The position numbers and the translations under genes are program-made. From Escherichia coli (GTDB taxonomy: Bacteria > Pseudomonadota > Gammaproteobacteria > Enterobacterales > Enterobacteriaceae), in NCBI RefSeq assembly GCF_044324875.1, contig NZ_CP172185.1: a stretch of 64,000 nt of DNA; one strand, 5' to 3'. The notes beneath the pieces were generated by a model that worked only from the letters and a program-made list of their open reading frames with translations, was not told where the DNA came from and ran no database searches. Of this stretch, positions 2,618 to 53,659 are shown piece after piece. Position 1 is the stretch's first letter. Every line of letters begins with the position of its first letter.

Positions 2618-4629
2618 TGAACGCATCGTCATGGTCCTTGCGCAATTTGCCCTGGTTCAGGGCCACGCTGGCGCAATGGCGTTATGCGTTACGCAATACC
2701 ATTGCCATGTGTCTGGCGCTGACGGTTGCCTATTATTTAAATCTGGATGAACCCTATTGGGCGATGACCTCGGCTGCCGTGGTTAGCTTTCCCACCGTTG
2801 GCGGTGTCATCAGCAAAAGCCTCGGACGCATCGCTGGCAGTTTGCTCGGAGCCATTGCGGCACTGCTTCTTGCCGGACATACGCTCAATGAGCCGTGGTT
2901 TTTTCTTTTGAGCATGGCGGCGTGGCTTGGCTTTTGTACCTGGGCCTGTGCGCACTTCACGAATAATGTCGCGTATGCATTTCAACTGGCGGGCTACACG
3001 GCTGCCATCATCGCCTTTCCGATGGTTAATATTACTGAGGCCAGCCAGCTGTGGGATATCGCTCAGGCGCGCGTTTGCGAGGTGATTGTCGGTATTTTGT
3101 GCGGCGGCATGATGATGATGATCCTGCCGAGCAGTTCCGATGCTACTGCCCTTTTAACCGCATTGAAAAACATGCACGCCCGATTACTGGAACATGCCAG
3201 TTTACTCTGGCAGCCTGAAACAACCGATGCCATTCGTGCAGCACATGAGGGGGTGATTGGACAGATACTGACCATGAATTTGCTCCGTATCCAGGCTTTC
3301 TGGAGCCACTATCGTTTTCGCCAGCAAAACGCACGCCTTAATGCGCTGCTCCACCAGCAATTACGTATGACCAGTGTCATCTCCAGCCTGCGACGTATGT
3401 TGCTCAACTGGCCCTCACCGCCATGTGCCACACGAGAAATTCTCGAACAGCTGCTGACGGCGCTCGCCAGTTCGCAAACAGATGTTTACACCGTCGCACG
3501 TATTATCGCCCCGCTACGCCCGACCAACGTCGCCGACTACCGGCACGTCGCCTTCTGGCAGCGACTACGTTATTTTTGCCGCCTTTATCTGCAAAGTAGT
3601 CAGGAATTACATCGTCTGCAAAGCGGTGTGGATGATCATACCAGACTCCCACGGACATCCGGCCTGGCTCGTCATACCGATAACGCCGAAGCTATGTGGA
3701 GCGGACTGCGTACATTTTGTACGTTGATGATGATTGGCGCATGGAGTATTGCTTCGCAATGGGATGCCGGTGCCAATGCATTAACGCTGGCAGCAATTAG
3801 CTGCGTACTCTACTCCGCCGTCGCAGCACCGTTTAAGTCGTTGTCACTGCTGATGCGCACGCTGGTGTTACTTTCGCTATTCAGCTTTGTGGTCAAATTT
3901 GGCCTGATGGTCCAGATTAGCGATCTGTGGCAATTTTTACTGTTTCTCTTTCCACTGCTGGCGACGATGCAGCTTCTTAAATTGCAGATGCCCAAATTTG
4001 CCGCACTGTGGGGGCAACTGATTGTTTTTATGGGTTCGTTTATCGCTGTCACTAATCCCCCGGTGTATGATTTTGCTGATTTTCTTAACGATAATTTGGC
4101 AAAAATCGTTGGCGTCGCGTTGGCGTGGTTAGCGTTCGCCATTTTGCGTCCAGGGTCGGATGCTCGTAAAAGCCGTCGTCATATTCGCGCGCTGCGCCGG
4201 GATTTTGTCGATCAACTAAGCCGCCATCCAACACTGAGTGAAAGCGAATTTGAATCGCTCACTTATCATCACGTCAGTCAGTTGAGTAACAGCCAGGATG
4301 CGCTGGCTCGCCGTTGGTTATTACGCTGGGGTGTAGTGCTGCTGAACTGTTCTCATGTTGTCTGGCAATTACGCGACTGGGAATCGCGTTCCGATCCGTT
4401 ATCGCGAGTACGGGATAACTGTATTTCACTGTTGCGGGGAGTGATGAGTGAGCGTGGCGTTCAGCAAAAATCACTGGCGACCACACTTGAAGAATTACAG
4501 CGGATTTGTGACAGCCTTGCCCGTCATCATCAACCTGCTGCCCGTGAGCTGGCGGCAATTGTCTGGCGGCTGTACTGCTCGCTTTCGCAACTTGAGCAAG
4601 CACCGCCACAAGGTACGCTGGCCTCTTAA
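2617..4629 (+). CDS. ydhK: FUSC-family inner membrane efflux protein
   Basis: 670-aa polytopic membrane ORF whose start overlaps the ydhJ stop; synteny. Confidence 0.85.
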
Positions 4630-9583: not shown

Positions 9584-12500
9584 ATGGCAGATAATCCAAA
9601 CCTTTCATCGCCCCTGCCGGACGTGTTTTCACCGGCAACCCGCGACTGGTTTCTTCGCGCCTTTAAACAGCCGACCGCTGTCCAGTCGCAAACCTGGCAT
9701 GTGGCGGCGCGAGGCGAACATGCGCTGGTGATTGCACCGACTGGCTCCGGGAAAACGCTGGCAGCATTTCTCTACGCCCTCGATCAGCTCTTCCGCGAAG
9801 GCGGCGAAGATACCCGCGAGGCGCATAAACGTAAAACCTCACGCATCCTCTATATTTCACCGATCAAAGCTCTGGGCACCGACGTTCAGCGCAACTTGCA
9901 GATCCCGTTACAGGGTATTGCCGATGAACGGCGGCGGCGCGGCGAAACGGAAGTCAATCTTCGCGTGGGGATCCGTACTGGCGATACGCCTGCACAGGAA
10001 CGCAGCAAACTCACCCGTAATCCGCCGGATATTCTGATCACCACACCCGAATCACTCTATCTGATGCTGACCTCCCGCGCGCGCGAAACGCTACGCGGCG
10101 TCGAAACGGTAATTATTGATGAAGTCCACGCGGTAGCGGGCAGTAAACGTGGTGCGCATCTGGCGTTAAGTCTGGAGCGGCTCGATGCGCTGCTCCACAC
10201 CTCAGCACAGCGAATTGGCCTTTCTGCCACTGTACGCTCAGCCAGCGATGTTGCAGCATTTCTTGGTGGCGATCGCCCGGTTACGGTAGTAAACCCGCCC
10301 GCAATGCGCCATCCGCAGATACGGATTGTCGTACCGGTCGCCAATATGGATGATGTCTCATCGGTCGCCAGCGGCACCGGCGAAGACAGCCATGCCGGCC
10401 GAGAAGGCTCCATCTGGCCATATATTGAAACGGGTATCCTTGATGAAGTTTTGCGCCATCGCTCGACCATTGTCTTTACTAATTCACGCGGGCTGGCGGA
10501 AAAACTGACGGCACGATTGAATGAACTTTACGCCGCACGCTTACAGCGTTCCCCGTCTATCGCCGTTGATGCGGTCCATTTCGAGTCGACCTCCGGCGCA
10601 ACCTCTAACCGTGTACAAAATAGCGACATTTTTATTGCCCGCTCACACCACGGCTCCGTCTCTAAAGAACAACGAGCAATCACCGAACAGGCGCTGAAAT
10701 CGGGTGAATTACGCTGCGTGGTCGCAACCTCCAGTCTCGAACTGGGGATTGATATGGGCGCGGTGGATCTGGTGATTCAGGTGGCAACGCCGCTTTCTGT
10801 TGCCAGTGGGTTACAACGCATTGGACGTGCCGGACACCAGGTAGGTGGTATCTCCAAAGGGCTTTTTTTCCCCCGAACCAGGCGTGACTTAGTCGATTCC
10901 GCAGTCATTGTAGAGTGTATGTTCGCAGGCAGGCTGGAAAACCTGACACCGCCGCATAATCCACTCGACGTCCTTGCGCAGCAAACCGTTGCCGCCGCGG
11001 CGATGGATGCATTACAGGTAGACGAATGGTAATCCCGCGTACGCCGTGCCGCACCGTGGAAAGATCTGCCAAGACGTGTTTTTGACGCCACGCTGGATAT
11101 GCTTTCCGGGCGCTATCCCTCTGGCGATTTTTCTGCTTTTCGCCCCAAACTGGTCTGGAACCGGGAGACCGGGATATTGACCGCCCGACCTGGCGCTCAA
11201 TTGTTGGCGGTTACCAGCGGCGGCACCATTCCGGATCGTGGCATGTATAGCGTGTTATTACCCGAAGGTGAAGAACAGGCCGGTTCGCGGCGGGTGGGTG
11301 AACTGGATGAGGAGATGGTATATGAGTCGCGGGTGAACGACATTATCACTCTCGGCGCTACCTCATGGCGGATCCAGCAAATCACCCGCGATCAGGTGAT
11401 TGTGACTCCTGCTCCAGGTCGTTCTGCCCGCCTTCCCTTCTGGCGTGGTGAAGGTAACGGACGTCCGGCAGAATTAGGCGAGATGATCGGCGATTTTCTC
11501 CATTTACTGGCGGATGGCGCGTTCTTTTCCGGGACTATTCCCCCGTGGTTGGCAGAAGAAAATACGATCGCCAATATTCAGGGGTTGATTGACGAGCAGC
11601 GCAACGCGACGGGCATCGTTCCAGGTAGTCGTCATCTGGTCCTCGAACGGTGCCGTGATGAAATTGGTGACTGGCGTATTATTTTGCACTCTCCCTATGG
11701 AAGACGGGTGCATGAACCCTGGGCGCTGGCGATTGCCGGGCGAATACATGCACTATGGGGCGCTGACGCGTCTGTGGTTGCCAGTGATGACGGCATTGTT
11801 GCGCGCATTCCTGACACCGATGGTAAATTGCCTGATGCCGCGATTTTTTTGTTTGAACCAGAAAAGTTGCTGCAAATTGTCCGCGAGGCGGTAGGCAGCT
11901 CGGCACTTTTCGCCGCCCGTTTTCGCGAATGCTCCGCGCGGGCATTATTAATGCCGGGCCGCACGCCGGGCCATCGCACCCCGCTCTGGCAACAACGGCT
12001 GCGCGCCAGTCAGTTGCTGGAAATCGCTCAGGGATATCCGGATTTTCCGGTCATTCTCGAAACACTACGCGAATGTCTGCAAGATGTTTATGATCTTCCC
12101 GCGCTGGAACGTTTGATGCGTCGCCTGAACGGTGGCGAAATTCAAATATCCGATGTAACGACCACTACGCCTTCGCCTTTCGCCGCCAGTTTATTGTTCG
12201 GCTATGTCGCGGAATTTATGTACCAGAGCGACGCCCCGCTGGCAGAGCGCCGGGCATCCGTACTGTCGCTGGACAGCGAGTTACTGCGCAATCTACTCGG
12301 ACAGGTCGATCCGGGGGAATTACTCGACCCGCAGGTCATTCGCCAGGTGGAAGAAGAGTTGCAACGACTGGCTCCTGGCAGAAGAGCGAAAGGTGAAGAA
12401 GGATTGTTCGACCTGCTGCGCGAACTGGGGCCAATGACCGTTGAAGACCTGGCGCAACGACATACAGGCAGCAGTGAAGAGATTGCGTCGTATCTGGAAA

Positions 12501-13284
12501 ATCTTCTTGCAGTAAAACGAATCTTCCCGACCATGATTAGCGGGCAGGAGCGTCTTGCCTGTATGGATGATGCCGCCAGGCTGCGCGATGCTCTCGGCGT
12601 ACGACTACCAGAGTCACTGCCAGAGATTTATTTGCACCGAGTCAGTTACCCGCTTCGCGACCTCTTTCTGCGCTATCTCCGGGCTCATGCTCTGGTCACG
12701 TCTGAACAACTGGCTCATGAGTTTAGTCTCGGTACTGCCATTGTCGAAGAGCAACTTCAGCAACTGCGCGAACAGGGGCTGGTGATGAATCTGCAACAAG
12801 ACATCTGGGTGAGCGATGAAGTATTTCGTCGTCTGCGTTTGCGCTCGCTGCAAGCCGCCAGAGAAGCGACACGTCCCGTTGCGGCCACGACCTATGCGCG
12901 ATTGCTGCTGGAACGTCAGGGCGTATTACCCGCCACCGATGGTAGCCCGGCACTCTTTGCCTCAACATCGCCAGGCGTTTATGAGGGCGTGGATGGCGTG
13001 ATGCGGGTGATCGAACAGCTTGCTGGCGTTGGTTTACCCGCCTCACTCTGGGAAAGCCAGATCCTGCCTGCCCGCGTACGCGACTATTCGCCAGAAATGC
13101 TCGATGAATTACTGGCAACCGGTGCGGTTATCTGGTCGGGGCAAAAAAAGCTGGGTGAAGATGACGGTCTGGTGGCACTGCATCTACAGGAATATGCCGC
13201 AGAATCGTTCACTCCCGCCGAAGCAGATCAGGCGAATCGTTCGGCGCTGCAGCAAGCGATAATCGCTGTTCTGGCTGACGGAGG
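9584..13284 (+). pseudogene. lhr: lhr (large ATP-dependent helicase) 5' portion: in-frame TAA at 11030-11032, then truncated by prophage insertion
   Basis: ORFs 9584..11032 and 11099..13297 are in the same frame, separated by a single TAA; Walker A GSGKT and DEVH helicase motifs; frame runs into the prophage left end and stops at 13295-13297. Confidence 0.85.
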
Positions 13285-13297
13285 TGATCAGACATGA

Positions 13298-13327
13298 GAT
13301 AAATGAAGGGGGATCCGTGAGATAAAT
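13298..13327. repeat. left-end terminal repeats (GAGATAAAT x2), putative transposase binding sites
   Basis: GATAAAT at 13298-13304 and 13321-13327, mirrored at the right end. Confidence 0.4.
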
Positions 13328-13480
13328 AACGAATTGGAGTGGGTTAACATGGGTTCTGGTGAACAGAACTGAAATTCTTTTCCGCTATACGATAGATAAG
13401 TCGGGCATTGAAATCATCCTTCCTGGCAACTTAGAATCGAGTTTGCTGAAACATGACCCGCAACAAAAAGGATGATTCCA

Positions 13481-13642
13481 ATGACTACTCAAAACAATAA
13501 GCATGATAGCCTGGATTACTCAGAAAAGCCCAAAAGCAAGCACATCGTGACGTTCGAGCGCGATTCCGGTAGAAAAGGAGAATCGTCTTCCTCTGCCAAT
13601 AAAACCACTATGCCGGCAGCCCCTGCCCCAGGGAAAAAATAA
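13481..13642 (+). CDS. hypothetical small hydrophilic protein (53 aa); may be spurious
   Basis: ATG with AAGGA 9 bp upstream; low-complexity Ser/Lys-rich product; convergent with the membrane-protein gene (3-bp gap). Confidence 0.25.
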   Translation: MTTQNNKHDSLDYSEKPKSKHIVTFERDSGRKGESSSSANKTTMPAAPAPGKK

Positions 13643-14392: not shown

Positions 14393-14791
14393 TTATCTGG
14401 ATTTGTTAACGTCTTTCGTCTCCTCTGGCAGATCTTCATCAAACAACCTGCCCTGCATCCGATCCAGTTCTTCTTTTCTGACCCGCTTAACCACGCTGTA
14501 GACCCACTGAAGCGAAACACCAAACTTGCGGGCCAGTTCGTGGTGGTTGCGTCCGTTAAACTCCCTGAAGATTTCCCGGTCGCGCTGACTGACCTTCCAT
14601 ACCATGCCCATCGGGAAATAAACGTTTTGCCCGCCCCAGACCTGCATCATTCGGTTCGCGACGGCCTGACCAATCTGGTCGGCAATTGCGGGCTCAATAT
14701 CAATAATCTCGCGAACGGTCTCAGAGGTATGCTGTGCCAGCTCCACCAGGAGTTCCGGCCCTTTACTTCGAAACTGATTCAGGTCGCTCAT
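14393..14791 (-). CDS. mor: Mor-family middle/late transcription activator
   Basis: 132-aa ORF with the C-terminal segment FREFNGRNHHELARKFGVSLQWVYSVVKRVRK matching Mu Mor. Confidence 0.8.
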   Translation of the reverse strand: MSDLNQFRSKGPELLVELAQHTSETVREIIDIEPAIADQIGQAVANRMMQVWGGQNVYFPMGMVWKVSQRDREIFREFNGRNHHELARKFGVSLQWVYSVVKRVRKEELDRMQGRLFDEDLPEETKDVNKSR

Positions 14792-15254
14792 GTTTTACTC
14801 CCGCAGCTCTGTGCTGCCACTTCTTCAGTTTCTCAATAACACTGCTTGCCTGTTCAGTATTGAGCCAGCGCAGGGCGCTGATGCCCGTTTCCCGCTTGAT
14901 CCACCGCGCTAATGCATTTTCTGAACGGTCACGAACAATGCCGGCAGCAGCCATTTCAAGCCATAGCGCACGGATTTTCCTGGACTGCGGATGGTTATCC
15001 AGCGGTAAACCGGAGCTGGCTTTTCCGGCAGGCTTAACGCGAAAGCCTTTCCTTTTCATGGATTCCAGCACGCAGTTTAGTTGTGTGGTATCCATTCCTT
15101 TGGTTGAGGCTTTACCGGTCAGCCCCTGTAACATCTGGCGATAGGTGTCTTCATCCATACCCAGTTCATTACGGGCAATATGAATGAGCTGGATAAGACG
15201 TTGTTTAGTCATCATCGTTGCTCCTTTTACCTGCGCCACCGATATAATCGACAT
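14763..15254 (-). CDS. GemA/gp16-like protein (DUF1018)
   Basis: 163-aa ORF immediately upstream of mor as in Mu; family recognised from memory. Confidence 0.6.
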   Translation of the reverse strand: MSIISVAQVKGATMMTKQRLIQLIHIARNELGMDEDTYRQMLQGLTGKASTKGMDTTQLNCVLESMKRKGFRVKPAGKASSGLPLDNHPQSRKIRALWLEMAAAGIVRDRSENALARWIKRETGISALRWLNTEQASSVIEKLKKWQHRAAGVKHERPESVSK

Positions 15255-18243: not shown

Positions 18244-19410
18244 TTAAACTCCTTTGACAACGTCAGCGTTGACCTGTGGAACCCCGATTTCAGCGGCCAG
18301 ATTCATGGCGGCTATTACCAGGTTACTGACGGCCAGCGGATACAGCAGGCTGACCATATTTTTACGATGACTTCCCGGATTGCTCAGGCGGGCACGTATG
18401 GCATCCACTGCGCTGGCGTCCATAATGTCCGTCAGTTGTTTACCGGCCCGTTGCAGTTTGAACGTCAGAAATTCTTCAAGGTTATTGTCCAGAGGCAGAA
18501 GTTCGACCACCTCACAGCGCTGAACGACTTCACGGACTTCCATATTGCGTTCAGACAGTTTTGTCGCCAGTTCCGGCTGGCCAATCAGCACGATGGACAG
18601 CAGTTTTTTGAAACCGGACTCCAGCTCAAAAAAGCGTTTGAGGTGTTTCAGTGTCGGAATGGGCAGACTGTGGGCCTCCTCAATCACCAGAACGTGGCTG
18701 AACCCCGCCTGGCTGCTGTCTTTCAGGACGCGATGCAACTGGCGAAAGCGGGCGTCCTGACTGCGTCTGATGCTTTCCAGTGGTGCGATGGTACTGATAA
18801 TGGCTTCGGCAATAGCTGCTGCCTTCAGGGTTTTCCCTTTCACATCGTTGTCTTCCATAGCGATGATGTATGGCTCGATAACAATTACCGGCGCATTCTC
18901 GCGGTTAATACGTTCAGTCAGGTCGCGGCGCAGCGTGGATTTACCCGCACCGGACTCACCGATGACGGCCATAAACCCACCATGACGGGCTGTCTGGTAC
19001 AGCGCCTCACGCACGTAGCGAATGTCCGGGGTGGTGAACACATCATCAGAACCCTGCATGGCTTCATCGGCGAACGGGTCACGGAAAAGACCAAACGCTT
19101 TTTTGGTTGCTGGAAATAACACCTGTTTTTTGAGTAACATATTCTCTTCCTCACTGAGGCTCGTTTTATCTGTGGTACCCGCTGTACGGGGCGTGGCCGC
19201 GCCCTGTACAGCATCAAAACTCTTCGTTGTATCAATCCCCTGACTTTCCAGCCAGGACGCAAGACGCCGGCGCACTTCTCCGGGGCTGGTGCGGGGCCAC
19301 GCGTTATGATTCACAATCTGGGCCAGCGTGGCCTCAGAAACATCGACAGCTCTCGCCGCCACCGCCTGTGGAATACGGGCCTCTTTCAGTTGCTGCTTCA
19401 GTACCAGCAT
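18244..19410 (-). CDS. MuB-like transposition ATPase (AAA+)
   Basis: Walker A GESGAGKST; ATG at 19408-19410 preceded by GAGGAGGG SD; directly downstream of transposase. Confidence 0.75.
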   Translation of the reverse strand: MLVLKQQLKEARIPQAVAARAVDVSEATLAQIVNHNAWPRTSPGEVRRRLASWLESQGIDTTKSFDAVQGAATPRTAGTTDKTSLSEEENMLLKKQVLFPATKKAFGLFRDPFADEAMQGSDDVFTTPDIRYVREALYQTARHGGFMAVIGESGAGKSTLRRDLTERINRENAPVIVIEPYIIAMEDNDVKGKTLKAAAIAEAIISTIAPLESIRRSQDARFRQLHRVLKDSSQAGFSHVLVIEEAHSLPIPTLKHLKRFFELESGFKKLLSIVLIGQPELATKLSERNMEVREVVQRCEVVELLPLDNNLEEFLTFKLQRAGKQLTDIMDASAVDAIRARLSNPGSHRKNMVSLLYPLAVSNLVIAAMNLAAEIGVPQVNADVVKGV

Positions 19411-19420
19411 GTTTCCCTCC

Positions 19421-21190
19421 TCAGTTGCCGTTAACAATGCTGATAACGCTGCTGCGGGCCGGCGTGGTCAGCGTGGCCATGACTTCATCCAGTGCGGCTT
19501 CCGGTACGCCGTCCGGGTACTGTGCTGTTAACTGGCGGTAATGTTCCGGCGTCCAGGTCAGGCCGTCGGCGCTGAACTTATCGCGCAGGGCTTTCGCGGC
19601 CTCCACATGAGTCATGGGACGCTGTTCAGTGCGCGGTCCGCGTACGTCAGAGGCCTGACCACGCTTCGGTATACAGGCCGGAAGTGTGGCGTCATCAATA
19701 TGTTTATACGGGTCAAGCCGCCCGCCGAACGGCAGCGCCTTCGCCTTGCGTGCGGCAGCTGCATCTGCGGCGTTGTCTGTACCGGTGACCAGCGCTTCGG
19801 TTTCTTTTGCCGCCATCTGCGCCGGGGTTTCCGGCAGGGCTTTGTAACTTTCGCCAAATACCGCCGCGCCTTCAGCAAAGCCAAACTCGTTCTTTCTGAC
19901 CTCTTCGACCAGGAAGAACGTCTCGTGGCCGTCCTCACCGGTCAGAACCACCTGTGCCACATCGCTGCGCCACGGGTTACGGGTAATCATCAGTTTTTCA
20001 CCGACCAGTACGCCCGGTACCGTTGATACGTCAAATTCAGTGCCCCGGAACGAGACACGAAGTTTTGGCGTGACTTTGCGGAGTTCTGGTGCCGCCACAG
20101 CCAGTTCACGACATACCTCAACGGAAGGCGCTTTTTTCAGCTGCTCAGCAGTAATCTTCAGCCAGATATCCGTGCGGGTTTTACCGTGGCGGCTGTGAAC
20201 AGCCGTGGCGTTAAAGTGGCTGCGCCATTTCGCGGCCAGCGCGTTGAGTTCTTCCAGACTGTGAACCGGCCGGAACTTCAGACCCGGCTCCAGCTTGCGT
20301 TCGATAATGTCACGCGCCTTTTCCACCTGTCCGGTGGCGCGGGCGTTATGCGGCTTGTGCGCTATCAGGTCGATGCCCAGTGAGCGGCACATGTTTTTCG
20401 TCATACCCGCGGTGTTTGCCGAGCCGGGGTCGAGATAGAGTATTTTTGGCACGCCGTGCAGCACGTCTGCGCCGCCACGCTCCTGCATGGCGTTGATAAG
20501 CACAGAACACAGGTTCTCACCGGATTCCGCACCCGTCACATACTCAACGTAAATCCAGCCGCTGGCATGGTCGGTAATCTCGTAACTCCACACGCGGTCA
20601 CTGGCGATACGGGCAAGGTTAGCGGGCTTGTTTTTGTAGAATTTCGCGCTGTCCATCACCTGCAGCCCTTTATGTCCATTGCTCAGGTAGTAAAGCGTGC
20701 AGAGTGAGGCGTCAATCTGCCAGACATGATTGGGGTGCAGACTGGCCACTTCGGTATGCGGTGCAGGGGCATCCAGTTGTTCCGGGTGCAGGCCATAGTT
20801 ACGCAGGGCACGACTGATGGCATCTTCGGACAACGGGAAAAACTCACCGGTGGTTTCATCTGTTCTGCCTGCGGAGATAAAGCCGTTAGCCCGCAGGGTT
20901 TCCACTGCATCCGCGATGGAATAGAGACGCTTACCGTTCTTGCGGGTGGCCTCACGTAGTGTGGCAGATATCAGCGCGGCTTCGTCGCGGGTCAGGGTGC
21001 TGCGTCCGGCATCGGCGCGTTTTTTGCGTTTATCAGTCACAGAGACCTCCTTCAGCCTGCGCAGCAGAGTGGCGCGGGACATGCCAAGTTCAGCACAGGC
21101 AGCGTCGTATATTGCACCGCGTTTACCATGCCCCGCATTACGTGCCGCGCGGGCTGTTTCAACAAGTTTTTCAGTCAGTGCCGGGGTCAT
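19421..21190 (-). CDS. DDE transposase (Mu A-like function, rve-type catalytic core with N-terminal HTH)
   Basis: 589-aa ORF; HTH RATLLRRLKEV; HVWQIDASLC core; position upstream of MuB-like gene. Confidence 0.8.
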   Translation of the reverse strand: MTPALTEKLVETARAARNAGHGKRGAIYDAACAELGMSRATLLRRLKEVSVTDKRKKRADAGRSTLTRDEAALISATLREATRKNGKRLYSIADAVETLRANGFISAGRTDETTGEFFPLSEDAISRALRNYGLHPEQLDAPAPHTEVASLHPNHVWQIDASLCTLYYLSNGHKGLQVMDSAKFYKNKPANLARIASDRVWSYEITDHASGWIYVEYVTGAESGENLCSVLINAMQERGGADVLHGVPKILYLDPGSANTAGMTKNMCRSLGIDLIAHKPHNARATGQVEKARDIIERKLEPGLKFRPVHSLEELNALAAKWRSHFNATAVHSRHGKTRTDIWLKITAEQLKKAPSVEVCRELAVAAPELRKVTPKLRVSFRGTEFDVSTVPGVLVGEKLMITRNPWRSDVAQVVLTGEDGHETFFLVEEVRKNEFGFAEGAAVFGESYKALPETPAQMAAKETEALVTGTDNAADAAAARKAKALPFGGRLDPYKHIDDATLPACIPKRGQASDVRGPRTEQRPMTHVEAAKALRDKFSADGLTWTPEHYRQLTAQYPDGVPEAALDEVMATLTTPARSSVISIVNGN

Positions 21191-22811: not shown

Positions 22812-23000
22812 TCAGGCTGCCTGAGCTGTTGATTTCAGCCCCAGTTTCACGGCGATTTCATGGGATTTACCGTAACGTGCTTTGCTCTGCCCATTGAGAA
22901 CGCGGTATACCTCATTGCGGTTGTAGCCGTTTTCTTCTGCCCAGCGGGTGAAAGTGATCCCGCGCTGGCGGAAGAGAGCTTTGACTTGTTCTGCAGTCAT
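22812..23000 (-). CDS. ner: Ner-like small DNA-binding protein (Cro-equivalent)
   Basis: 62-aa ORF with AAGGAGA SD, divergent from the repressor; Ner-like HTH pattern. Confidence 0.55.
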   Translation of the reverse strand: MTAEQVKALFRQRGITFTRWAEENGYNRNEVYRVLNGQSKARYGKSHEIAVKLGLKSTAQAA

Positions 23001-23100
23001 CGTTGTCTCCTTTGTTGATGCAATGATGTTTGCCTTATGTGTGATAGATTATGGTGCAGATTATCTCACCAGTCAACTTAAAGAGTGCAGAAAAACTCAC
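23001..23100. promoter_or_regulatory. divergent early control region between ner and repressor (candidate operators)
   Basis: 100-bp AT-rich spacer containing the direct repeat AGATTAT twice (GATAGATTATGGTGCAGATTATCTC). Confidence 0.35.
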
Positions 23101-23439
23101 ATGATCGGGTTACGTATTAAAGAAGAAAGAGAGCGTCTATCTCTTACACAGCAAGGGTTGGCTGATGCTATCGGTGTGGCAAAGAGAACTTTTATTGATT
23201 GGGAAAAAGATCGCACTTCTCCTACTGCAGTGCAGTTATCTGCACTATCAGAAATCGGTGTAGATGTTTTGTATGTAGTTACTGGGGTGCGGAGTCAGCC
23301 TGTTGTTGCACCTTATATGTCACAAGAAAAGAAAGAGTTAATGGATGCATTCGACGAGATGAGCCCCGAACAACGGAGGGCAATTCTTGAGGTCGGCAAA
23401 GTCTTCATTCAACCCAAACCAAGCAAACTCGCAGGCTGA
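23101..23439 (+). CDS. XRE-family HTH repressor (c-like)
   Basis: Internal start MIGLRIKEERERLSLTQQGLADAIGVAKRTFIDWEKDRTSP, a classic XRE HTH; divergent from ner. Confidence 0.6.
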   Translation: MIGLRIKEERERLSLTQQGLADAIGVAKRTFIDWEKDRTSPTAVQLSALSEIGVDVLYVVTGVRSQPVVAPYMSQEKKELMDAFDEMSPEQRRAILEVGKVFIQPKPSKLAG

Positions 23440-23557: not shown

Positions 23558-24322
23558 TTAGAAATTGCAGATCACCAGCTCACGGCGTGGAGTTGATTTG
23601 CCTGCCAGACTGTAGTTGATGTTCACTGTCTGTATGTTCAGTCCAGTGAACACCTCGCGCATCTGCGGGATGTCGTTCACCGAAATTATCATCTTTCCTC
23701 TGATGCACCGGGCCAGCTCTGCCAGCCGCGAGTAGTTCCCTTCAGGAAAATCCACACCATAGCCTTCTGTACCCAGATACGGCGGGTCACAGTAGAACAG
23801 CGTGTGCGGACGGTCATAGCGCTCAATGCACTGTTGCCAGTCCATGTGTTCTATCACCGTTCTGGAAAGCCGCAGGTGTGCCGCTGACAGTTCTTCCTCG
23901 ATACGCAGCAGGTTGAAGCGTGGCGGGGATGTGGTGGAGGTGCCGAAGCTGTGCTCTGCCACCTTGCCGCCAAACGCCTGCTTCTGGAGGTAGTAGAACC
24001 GTGCTGCACGCTGGATATCCGTCAGTGTTTCTGTCGGGGTGATCTGCAGCCATTTGTAGATCTGCCGGCTGACCAGCGCCCATTTGAACTGGCGGACAAA
24101 TTCTTCCAGATGATGTTTTACCACCCGATACAGATTTACCAGTTCACCATTGATATCGTTAATGACTTCGAGCTTACCAGGTGTCTTAAGAAAATAGAGC
24201 GCTGCTGCGCCGCAGAACGGCTCCACGTAACATTCATGCGCCGGAAACAGCGGCAGGATGTGTTTTGCCAGGCGACGTTTGCCACCAATCCATGGAACGA
24301 TGGGTAATGTCTGCATTTTCAT
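23558..24322 (-). CDS. Dam-type N6-adenine DNA methyltransferase (D12 class)
   Basis: 254-aa ORF with DPPY catalytic motif and N-terminal FCGAAALYF SAM-binding motif. Confidence 0.8.
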   Translation of the reverse strand: MKMQTLPIVPWIGGKRRLAKHILPLFPAHECYVEPFCGAAALYFLKTPGKLEVINDINGELVNLYRVVKHHLEEFVRQFKWALVSRQIYKWLQITPTETLTDIQRAARFYYLQKQAFGGKVAEHSFGTSTTSPPRFNLLRIEEELSAAHLRLSRTVIEHMDWQQCIERYDRPHTLFYCDPPYLGTEGYGVDFPEGNYSRLAELARCIRGKMIISVNDIPQMREVFTGLNIQTVNINYSLAGKSTPRRELVICNF

Positions 24323-51804: not shown

Positions 51805-52419
51805 TCAGCCGGCAAGCGCCAGTGGCGCTTCCGGCCAGCTGATTTCAGGTGCCTTGCTGATATCCAGTGCGTTCAGCTCGTCGATATAATCCAGCACGGC
51901 GTTCAGTTTTGCCGTTTCTTCTGGTTTCAGACTGCGACCTGCCCGCAGTTTGAGGTTGATGAGGTCGATGGACTTCATCGCCTGATCCACCCGTTCCTGG
52001 CGTTGCAGTCTGGCAACCTCCAGCTCTGCGGCTCGCTGCCGTTCAGTATCGGTTACCCACGCCTCACCGTTCCAGGTATCCCATGGCGTGGCCGGCTGTT
52101 TTGTGGTGGTGTCCGCCGGGTAATCACCCGGCTGGGTAATCTGAACGGGAGTACCGTTCTCCGTGCTGTATACCGTCTCGCCGCGGTGATCAGGCACATG
52201 TTCCCACCCGTTCAGCGTGGCAGTCCGGCAAACCACGTAACCCGAAATTGCCTCCGGCGGTGCATCGGCGCACGAATGTGCCGGAGTACCCACCCCAAGG
52301 GCGAGATACTCCACAGAGGATGAGGTGTATTCCCGGGTTTCCTCGTCATAGTGATATACAGTGATATCGCCCGCTACAGTGGCGATACCGTTTTCATCCA
52401 GAACTGCAGTGTTACTCAT
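51805..52419 (-). CDS. tail fibre assembly protein (Tfa/U-like), cognate to the alternative fibre tip
   Basis: 204-aa ORF of Tfa type downstream of the alternative fibre C-terminus on the minus strand. Confidence 0.7.
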   Translation of the reverse strand: MSNTAVLDENGIATVAGDITVYHYDEETREYTSSSVEYLALGVGTPAHSCADAPPEAISGYVVCRTATLNGWEHVPDHRGETVYSTENGTPVQITQPGDYPADTTTKQPATPWDTWNGEAWVTDTERQRAAELEVARLQRQERVDQAMKSIDLINLKLRAGRSLKPEETAKLNAVLDYIDELNALDISKAPEISWPEAPLALAG

Positions 52420-52901
52420 TAAACTGCCCTCACAATGTAATTAAGTGCAATGCTACGGGGTCTGACAGTGATACCCTTCGCATACCCGCTTCTGATAGAG
52501 GTCAGAATAGTAGCCTGCATACCATTGTCTGACATTGCCACGACAGGATCGCTGAATGTTGTCCCGTCCGGCATTTTAAAGCTGCCCTCACGAAGGTCTG
52601 TAATGGAATCTTCATTGTTGAATCCCATGCCGACTATCCCCGAGGTTCCCGTAGTGTCCTGGTTATAATAATCCAGCATTGCTGTTCTTAACAGCGTTGC
52701 CCCTTGTGCGGACAGCAACTTACGTCCTGTATCAACTTTGCGCCCGTCGTCCCATCCACGGATAAACTCACCGCGCAAATCGGGAAGACGGAGGGTCGGG
52801 TAGGCTCTGGCCAGAACAGGATATTGTTCTTTTGTAAAGGCGCGCCCGTCGCACTTTAACCAGCCTGCTGGCGGTGTGGCGGTGGGCCACGGAACAGGCA
52901 C
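52419..52901 (-). CDS. alternative tail fibre C-terminal cassette (promoterless in current orientation)
   Basis: Begins PVPWPTATPPAGWL..., paralogous to the plus-strand fibre tip, ends NYIVRAV; lies inside the invertible segment. Confidence 0.7.
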   Translation of the reverse strand: MPVPWPTATPPAGWLKCDGRAFTKEQYPVLARAYPTLRLPDLRGEFIRGWDDGRKVDTGRKLLSAQGATLLRTAMLDYYNQDTTGTSGIVGMGFNNEDSITDLREGSFKMPDGTTFSDPVVAMSDNGMQATILTSIRSGYAKGITVRPRSIALNYIVRAV

Positions 52902-53002
52902 ACCAACGGGTAGCGCCGAGCCTTCTCCTAAACCAACGTTTATCTCTCAAATCCTCCTCACATTATCTCAGTACTTTAACCACTCAAAAGGGAGTATTTT
53001 TA

Positions 53003-53575
53003 ATGCTGATTGGCTACATACGTGTGTCAACAAATGACCAAAACACAGATTTGCAACGCAATGCATTAATGTGCGCAGGATGTGAACAGATTTTTGAGGA
53101 CAAAATGAGCGGAACCAAGTCGGAACGACCAGGCCTGAAACGCGCTTTAAAGTGCCTTAAAAGAGGGGATACATTGGTGGTCTGGAAGCTGGATCGGTTG
53201 GGTAGAAGAATGAAACACCTCATTGCTCTCACAGAAGAGCTACGCGCAAAAGGTGTCAATTTTCGCAGTCTGACGGATTCAATCGATACCAGCACTCCGA
53301 TGGGAAGGTTCTTTTTTCATATGATGGGTGCACTGGCAGAAATGGAGCGTGAACTGATAGTTGAGCGCACGCTGGCAGGACTGGCTGCTGCGCGAGCACA
53401 AGGGAGAGTTGGAGGACGTCGCCCGAAACTGACGAAGGAGCAGCATGAGCAGATCGCAAGATTGCTCCAGAAAGGGTATGACAGAAAGCGGCTGGCAATT
53501 ATCTATGATATTGGACTGTCAACGATCTACCGCTATCACCCTGTTGGGACTGTCATAACGGAACCTGAAATGTAA
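53003..53575 (+). CDS. gin: Gin/Hin/Cin-family serine DNA invertase
   Basis: MLIGYIRVSTNDQNTDLQRNAL... closely matches Mu Gin; ATG at 53003 with AAAGGGAG SD. Confidence 0.9.
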   Translation: MLIGYIRVSTNDQNTDLQRNALMCAGCEQIFEDKMSGTKSERPGLKRALKCLKRGDTLVVWKLDRLGRRMKHLIALTEELRAKGVNFRSLTDSIDTSTPMGRFFFHMMGALAEMERELIVERTLAGLAAARAQGRVGGRRPKLTKEQHEQIARLLQKGYDRKRLAIIYDIGLSTIYRYHPVGTVITEPEM

Positions 53576-53610
53576 TTCTTTTTCAAATAATGAAACGCCG
53601 CGTGGATGCC

Positions 53611-53640
53611 ATTTATCGCACAAGATAGAGCGCATTTATC
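53611..53640. repeat. right-end terminal repeats (ATTTATC x2), putative transposase binding sites
   Basis: CATTTATC at 53611-53617 and 53634-53640, inverted relative to left-end GATAAAT motifs. Confidence 0.4.
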
Positions 53641-53659
53641 GCGCGGCGCATCACGGAGG

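Follow-up and report, generated by a model that had tools for sequence, protein, structure and literature searches.

Paired 23-bp repeats as candidate transposase sites at both ends of a BcepMu/B3-type transposable prophage in Escherichia coli

RESULTS

A transposable prophage interrupts lhr

The DNA analyzed here is a 64-kb stretch of an E. coli genome, referred to below as the window. It holds a complete transposable prophage, whose main genes are listed here with the element itself.

13285 to 53653, plus strand: whole transposable prophage, in lhr; collinear with BcepMu and with the DEF10 relative
14393 to 14791, minus strand: Mor-type activator
14763 to 15254, minus strand: GemA
18244 to 19437, minus strand: AAA+ transposition ATPase (TnpB/MuB-like role, ExeA type); PHROG 296 "DNA transposition protein," 5e-93
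19421 to 21190, minus strand: DDE transposase TnpA, 589 amino acids; PHROG 310, 8e-147; Pfam rve
22948 to 23439, plus strand: repressor-like gene
23558 to 24322: Dam-type methylase
52874 to 53575: Gin-like serine invertase

Read from the left, the order is Mor, GemA and, further in, the ATPase and the transposase, all transcribed leftward, followed by a regulatory region with Ner-like and repressor-like regulators around 22.8 to 23.4 kb and then by Dam. Lysis, head, and P2-like tail genes come after Dam, with the Gin-like invertase at the right end, and several small helix-turn-helix (HTH) proteins are encoded as well. The early region is thus inverted relative to that of Mu, with Mor, GemA, the ATPase, and the transposase on the minus strand and the repressor-like gene on the plus strand; the same inversion has been described for BcepMu-type phages (PMC3091646). 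The position of the ATPase gene matches that of BcepMu gp08, and its product is presumed to be the target-capture partner of the transposase.

Two further arrangements were seen in the prophage. The Gin-like invertase gene adjoins two minus-strand open reading frames (ORFs) (51805 to 52419 and 52419 to 52901) directly after the tail-fiber gene, so that window positions 51805 to 53575 look like an invertible host-range switch of the Mu G-segment type; the DEF10 relative is without this arrangement. A 16-nt inverted repeat (13406 to 13421 and 13468 to 13483; 94% complementary, 46-nt loop) that is conserved in DEF10 lies in the interval separating the left end from the first gene transcribed leftward. 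The right arm of this repeat extends into the beginning of a small conserved plus-strand ORF (13472 to 13642), and the repeat may act as a terminator or as an RNA element.

The prophage boundaries are exact

The sequence flanking the prophage is that of the E. coli lhr helicase gene. Comparison with the uninterrupted lhr of E. coli 042 set the limits of the insert at 13285 and 53653, a length of 40,369 bp. The empty site reads GGCTGA CGGAGG AGCCTGG, and in the window CGGAGG is present on either side of the insert, giving a 6-bp target-site duplication and prophage termini of the form 5'-TG...CA-3' (TGATC...GCATCA by the same comparison). DEF10, a divergent relative in E. coli, is inserted in xylR and flanked by the duplication AGAAGC, and an internally deleted relative in IMG/VR (L067) has the 6-bp duplication CCATGA. 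We considered a 5-bp duplication, which is possible for a single insertion if the extra base is given to the element, but the DEF10 insertion excludes it. Six base pairs with TG..CA tips is the reading we adopted, since it is the only one that fits both fully analyzed insertions, those of the window and of DEF10. The exact empty site, the TG..CA tips, and the 6-bp duplication together establish 13285 to 13330 and 53608 to 53653 as true transposon ends.

The prophage splits lhr into window positions 11099 to 13297 and a part that runs from 53654 onward. The upstream part of the reading frame meets a stop codon 13 nt into the prophage (…ADGGDQT, then stop).

Each end carries two abutting 23-bp repeats

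Read on the plus strand from 13285, the left end is TGATCAGACATGAGATAAATG-AAGGGGGATCC-GTGAGATAAATAACG. The right end, read on the minus strand from 53653 as the reverse complement, is TGATGCGCCGCGCGATAAATG-CGCTCTATCTT-GTGCGATAAATGGC. Each end consists of two adjacent 23-bp imperfect direct repeats, named L1 and L2 on the left and R1 and R2 on the right, in mirror orientation between the ends. The features of the ends are as follows.

13279 to 13284, no strand: left copy of the target-site duplication CGGAGG (host lhr), from the E. coli 042 empty site
13285 to 13307, plus strand: L1, outer left 23-bp repeat; tip TG at 13285 to 13286, core ATGAGATAAAT at 13294 to 13304
13308 to 13330, plus strand: L2, inner left 23-bp repeat; core GTGAGATAAAT at 13317 to 13327
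13330 to 13365, plus strand: left-end G-rich motifs TGGAG, TGGGT, and TGGGT, phased by about 10 bp and immediately inward of L2
53608 to 53630, minus strand: R2, inner right 23-bp repeat; core GTGCGATAAAT at 53611 to 53621
53631 to 53653, minus strand: R1, outer right 23-bp repeat; core GCGCGATAAAT at 53634 to 53644; the plus strand ends with CA at 53652 to 53653
53654 to 53659, no strand: right copy of the target-site duplication CGGAGG, from the E. coli 042 empty site

At either end, the two copies of the core GYGMGATAAAT begin at distances of 10 and 33 nt from the tip. Within them, GATAAAT is found at 13298 and 13321 on the plus strand and at 53640 and 53617 on the minus strand; measured from the respective tip, the offsets are 14 and 37, a 23-bp period at both ends. 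An earlier reading made from the sequence alone had quoted strings for the two ends and described GATAAAT cores at equal spacing; the strings are indeed present at 13285 (plus) and 53653 (minus), and the equal spacing holds. Its 14-nt spacer was a miscount: the spacer measures 11 nt, and 14 nt separate the 9-mers GAGATAAAT. The block at the right end, which that reading had placed at 53605 to 53653, accordingly spans 53608 to 53653.

The same period was recovered by an independent repeat search, in which 10-nt direct repeats 23 nt apart were found at both ends. The window holds 14 copies of GATAAAT, counting both strands, and the end sites account for four of them. The longer core GYGMGATAAAT has three exact matches in the window, all at the ends, and L1 matches it with one mismatch. 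A search of the window, DEF10, and BcepMu for a third, Mu-like site at each end revealed none within 500 bp, and each end of the window element has exactly two abutting sites.

The ends were also predicted with a matrix trained only on those of BcepMu, B3, and PM105, which are non-enterobacterial phages of Burkholderia and Pseudomonas. On either strand of the window, the site pair with the highest score predicted the tips at 13285 and 53653 exactly, with scores of 22.6 and 30.2, respectively, whereas the maximum in 20 shuffled windows was 19.5. Since the predicted tips coincide to the base with the boundaries given by the empty site, a chance match is excluded.

The two-site layout is conserved in related elements

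The left end of BcepMu is TGAAGAGAGGTGAGATATTTCC-AAGGGAGAAC-GCGCGATATTTCC and its right end is TGAAGCGCGGCGCGATATTTCA-GCACGTCGAC-GCGCGATAAATTC, with cores at offsets 14 and 37 in both. The ends of DEF10 begin with TGATGAGACATGAGATAAATG... on the left and TGATGCGGCGCGCGATAAATAAG... on the right. B3 and PM105 are organized likewise, but their cores have drifted to GAAATAC, GATAAAG, and GAAATTT, and their R1 and R2 are spaced 22 nt apart. The offset of L1 thus recurs in BcepMu, B3, PM105, and DEF10, and the core drifts across relatives from GATAAAT to GATATTT to GAAATAC or GAAATTT with the layout retained.

We extended the comparison to 80 IMG/VR loci (2.4 Mb), which were retrieved through the transposase protein alone at 59 to 99% identity and searched, on both strands, with an 11-nt matrix for paired sites spaced by 22 to 24 nt. 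Among pairs scoring at least 24 in these 2.4 Mb, all 24 have TG exactly 9 nt before the first core, and TG is absent from the scan matrix. Twenty-two of the 24 lie 3 to 9.5 kb downstream of tnpA and point inward; the remaining two are the right ends of L067 and L068. The IMG/VR ends were found by motif, which makes this survey partly circular, with the TG tip, the position, and the orientation as its only independent checks. In total, 26 distinct left ends, adjoining transposases 61 to 99% identical to that of the window, have the two-repeat layout, and all of them begin with TGA; at least 25 different hexamers flank them. When only loci with at least 6.2 kb of sequence downstream of tnpA were considered (n = 16), 13 had a strong pair and one (L087) had a weak pair, while the matrix scan of this region gave no strong site pair in L072 or L083. 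A motif-free repeat search for ends in L072, L083, and L087 gave nothing convincing.

The layout that the sequence-only reading had proposed to check in related prophages is thus kept in BcepMu, B3, PM105, DEF10, and the 26 IMG/VR left ends. The consensus derived for the family is TGA-N6-GYGMGAWAWWT-N3, twice per end.

Two of the IMG/VR loci, L067 (133 to 10842; UViG 2630968859_000003) and L068, hold an internally deleted derivative of a related prophage, 10.7 kb long in L067. In L067, head and tail genes are truncated, the transposase, ATPase, Mor, and Dam genes are kept, and both ends are intact. The survey also revealed reassortment of ends and transposases. Nearly the same left end, TGATTAGACTTGAGATAAATGAC..., is found in L010, L014, L020, L030, and L040 and in L079 and L084; it adjoins transposases 90 to 99% identical to that of the window in some loci and 61 to 62% identical in others. 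Conversely, a transposase 99% identical to that of the window occurs with two different left-end types. Because near-identical ends accompany divergent transposases and the same transposase accompanies two end types, ends and transposases are mosaic and interchangeable within the family.

The transposase is related to Tn552 p480 and is predicted to fold like TnsB

The transposase is 68% identical to BcepMu gp09, 56% identical to B3 TnpA (both over the full length), and 49% identical to that of PM105. Residues D160, D254, and E290 are invariant in an alignment of 118 sequences and form the DD(35)E triad. When the profile of these 118 sequences was compared with p480 of Tn552 from pN315, hhalign gave a probability of 98.8% and an E value of 5.5e-17 over 356 columns, the N-terminal helix-turn-helix included. 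By BLASTP, the identity to p480 in the DDE core is 23%, so the homology is distant. A relationship of BcepMu-type transposases to Tn552 has been noted before (PMC2628397, PMC8705779). The PHROG alignment of the transposase begins at profile position 130. Against NCBIfam, the transposase gave only a subthreshold IS481 match, and a tblastn search against plasmids gave mostly IS481-family matches, with no staphylococcal match among those listed. The element is a BcepMu/B3-type (Mu-like) transposable prophage with a Tn552-related DDE transposase.

An AF2 model of the transposase (pLDDT 90) predicts two N-terminal helical domains (about residues 3 to 49 and 68 to 139), an RNase H-like core, a beta-barrel, and C-terminal helices. 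The best solved structures in a Foldseek search with this model were TnsB chains of ShCAST and Tn7 transpososomes (8ea3_W, 7svw_B, 8aa5, and 7pik) and IstA of IS21. The TnsB matches reached E values down to 7e-19 over 536 aligned columns at 15 to 16% sequence identity, and the MuA core was only a distant fold match, at rank 47. At the sequence level, phmmer against PDB sequences returned only weak matches to retroviral-integrase cores and neither MuA nor TnsB.

The left and right ends differ

L1 and R1 of the window differ systematically (AGAC-ATGAGA versus GCGCCGCGCGA). The difference is family-wide: in the window, BcepMu, B3, PM105, DEF10, and L067, the outer left site conforms to TGA-(A/G)GAG-NN-TGAGA and the outer right site to TG-N2-GCGC(G/C)GCGCGA. 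This conservation suggests that the two ends are functionally distinguished, and a second protein could help to distinguish them. The motif CGATAAATGCG in window R1 is also present in the R2 site of Mu, which is probably a coincidence.

The G-rich motifs just inward of L2 in the window weakly reproduce an array of GGGA motifs found in relatives at offsets 46, 56, 66, and 76. GGGA or TGGA motifs are present at offsets of about 46 to 80 from the tip in the left ends of L010, L020, L030, L035, L036, L040, L062, L069, L070, L079, L084, B3 (L005), and BcepMu (L004), and 35 of the 68 intervals between them are exactly 10 bp. In the few right ends inspected by eye, GGGA motifs were not evident. The array is a candidate packaging (pac) or accessory-protein site.

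A third element is shared by the two ends. On the plus strand of the window, the 9-mer AATTCTTTT is present only at 13373 to 13381, 89 nt from the left tip, and at 53574 to 53582, 80 nt from the right one; the two copies are thus in direct orientation and do not mirror each other. At about this position, the left ends of relatives have related TGYAA-N5-TTKC motifs, as do the right ends of DEF10, B3, and BcepMu. We tentatively propose, at fairly low confidence, that this phage family may have an end identity code made up of the L1 and R1 sequences, the left-only array of three or four GGGA motifs phased exactly 10 bp apart, and a direct-oriented TGWAATTCTTTT(K)C about 80 to 90 nt from both tips. 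No description of such a code was found in the literature examined.

GATC occurs in L1 (13286 to 13289) and L2 (13312 to 13315), and the prophage encodes a Dam-type methylase. Control of the ends by Dam was rejected as a family feature, since the tips of most relatives are TGATT, TGATG, TGAAG, or TGAGA; at best, methylation control of the ends is specific to this lineage.

The element is widespread in E. coli

The left-end type of the window was found in 117 complete E. coli genomes, and 654 of 5,426 complete genomes contain the right end of the element. The left end was found inside many different genes, including rstB, tdh, yejF, gudD, and xylR. Homologues of the transposase are widespread in Enterobacterales and Burkholderia.

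A 145-bp relic of a left end was also identified at positions 4001 to 4144 of L003 (pAPEC-O2-211A-ColV) and in about 196 other E. coli records, among them many ColV-type plasmids and some chromosomes. It is equivalent to window positions 13294 to 13438 at 88 to 90% identity and lies in an unannotated gap beside a LysR gene and insertion sequence remnants. The relic keeps the L1 core and L2 and is without the TGATCAGAC tip.

DISCUSSION

Relationship to known transposition systems

Among the closest known counterparts are the Burkholderia phages BcepMu and phiE255 (Bcepmuvirus). The window element shares with BcepMu Mor and GemA at the left tip, a transposase transcribed toward the left end, a P2-like tail, TGA... 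tips, and ends built of two neighboring repeats whose cores lie at offsets 14 and 37. It differs in that the core is GATAAAT rather than the GATATTT of most BcepMu sites, in that the host is E. coli rather than Burkholderia, and in that it has a Gin-like invertase and Dam and lacks the BcepMu acyltransferase. The ends of phiE255 and BcepMu have been described as "23-bp imperfect direct repeats" and proposed to be likely transposase sites (PMC2920897). B3 (Beetrevirus, Pseudomonas) has 6-bp target duplications, and TG-CA tips are conserved generally (PMC8705779). The window element resembles B3 in both respects and in having two-site ends at the same offsets, whereas B3 has a siphovirus-type tail, drifted cores, and an R1-R2 spacing of 22 rather than 23 nt.

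Tn552 is a staphylococcal element that encodes p480 and the ATP-binding protein p271. It shares with the prophage a homologous transposase and an adjacent ATPase partner, but it is a 6.5-kb resistance transposon and not a phage. Its transposase is reported (Rowland et al., EMBO J, 1995) to footprint two adjacent 23-bp direct repeats per end; these sites reportedly lie within long terminal inverted repeats, and the duplications are reportedly 6 to 7 bp. In the rearranged Tn552 copy of pN315, terminal inverted repeats were not found.

The ends of Mu comprise L1, a gap of about 80 bp, L2, and L3 on the left and R1 to R3 on the right, and Mu makes a 5-bp duplication. Mu and the D3112-like phages resemble the window element in having mirrored transposase sites of about 22 bp by TG..CA tips, a partner ATPase, and replicative transposition, but they have three sites per end at unequal spacing (PMC4378225). 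The window element, in contrast, has a 6-bp duplication, a pair of abutting sites at each end where those phages have three spaced sites, and a transposase without homology to MuA at the sequence level, and for these reasons it is not of the Mu/MuA type.

The predicted model links the transposase to TnsB of Tn7 and of the type V-K CAST elements, with which it would share two N-terminal DNA-binding domains, an RNase H core, and a beta-barrel. TnsB binds repeated end sites of about 20 to 22 bp and acts in a four-protomer strand-transfer complex; Tn7 has three and four sites at its two ends and a 5-bp duplication. The gene map of the prophage contains no TnsA, TnsC, TniQ/TnsD, or Cas protein and only one ATPase, which is of the ExeA type; the other genes surrounding the transposase are all of phage kind. 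The transposase is a functional analogue of TnsB, and the element is not Tn7-like.

Function of the end repeats

We are confident that 13285 to 13330 and 53608 to 53653 are the functional attL and attR of a BcepMu/B3-type prophage, bound and joined by its transposase as proposed. The sequence-only reading had put the repeats forward as candidate transposase sites at both prophage ends, and that proposal gains support from the conservation of the repeats across the family and from the like proposal in PMC2920897. We presume that it is the transposase, rather than another protein, that contacts L1, L2, R1, and R2; in light of the predicted fold, contact is likely to be made through its N-terminal domains. 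In the mechanism that we envisage, each 23-bp repeat would be bound by one transposase protomer through the two N-terminal helical domains, and four bound protomers would pair both ends in a tetrameric transpososome. This complex would nick the DNA at the terminal 5'-TG/CA-3' and would join the 3' ends, with a 6-bp stagger, to target DNA captured by the neighboring AAA+ ATPase. Repair or replication across the stagger would then produce the CGGAGG duplication. One protomer per repeat is the simplest mechanism in view of the known Mu, Tn7, and CAST transpososomes, and by analogy with such systems we infer the four-protomer stoichiometry and the role of the ATPase.

Other proteins might instead be the main readers of the repeats. 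IHF, HU, Fis, a Ner- or repressor-type regulator, or the small terminase could organize or regulate the ends, with the transposase contacting the tip only. Such a second factor could account for the L1/R1 difference that is conserved across the family, and the prophage encodes several small HTH proteins. However, the operator of a regulator is not expected to be inverted at both ends, whereas four mirror-symmetric sites at a fixed 13 nt from the cleaved TG are arranged as transposase sites are in Mu, Tn7, and ShCAST. The site pair is, moreover, laid out in this way in most relatives whose transposases are 61 to 99% identical to that of the window. We regard recognition mainly by another protein as very unlikely; a regulator or host-factor site in addition to the transposase sites is possible.

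It is highly improbable that the repeats are a terminase pac signal, which would be expected at one end only, whereas the repeats are at both; the 10-bp-phased GGGA motifs, which were evident at left ends only, at offsets 46 to 76, are the better pac candidate. The cores are short, which leaves some room for chance resemblance or for an inert relic, but the sites match independently mapped ends to the base, they are conserved where transposase identity is only 49 to 68%, and the element is found at many different sites in E. coli. We give this last explanation practically no credence. The preferred reading is that the repeats are the transposase sites of the prophage.

Significance

The end layout had already been described for BcepMu and phiE255, and the present findings leave the understanding of transposable phages unchanged. 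They add ends mapped to the base for the E. coli lineage, a consensus that covers the family, a site count of two for each end, and the prediction that the transposase folds like TnsB. The base-exact ends and the consensus aid prophage annotation and could serve mini-transposon tools built on a Tn552/TnsB-like phage transposase. If the proposed end identity code is real, it could enable the transpososome and the terminase to distinguish the left end from the right, which would allow directional packaging and asymmetric transpososome assembly. For the host, the element inactivates the genes into which it inserts, in this case lhr.
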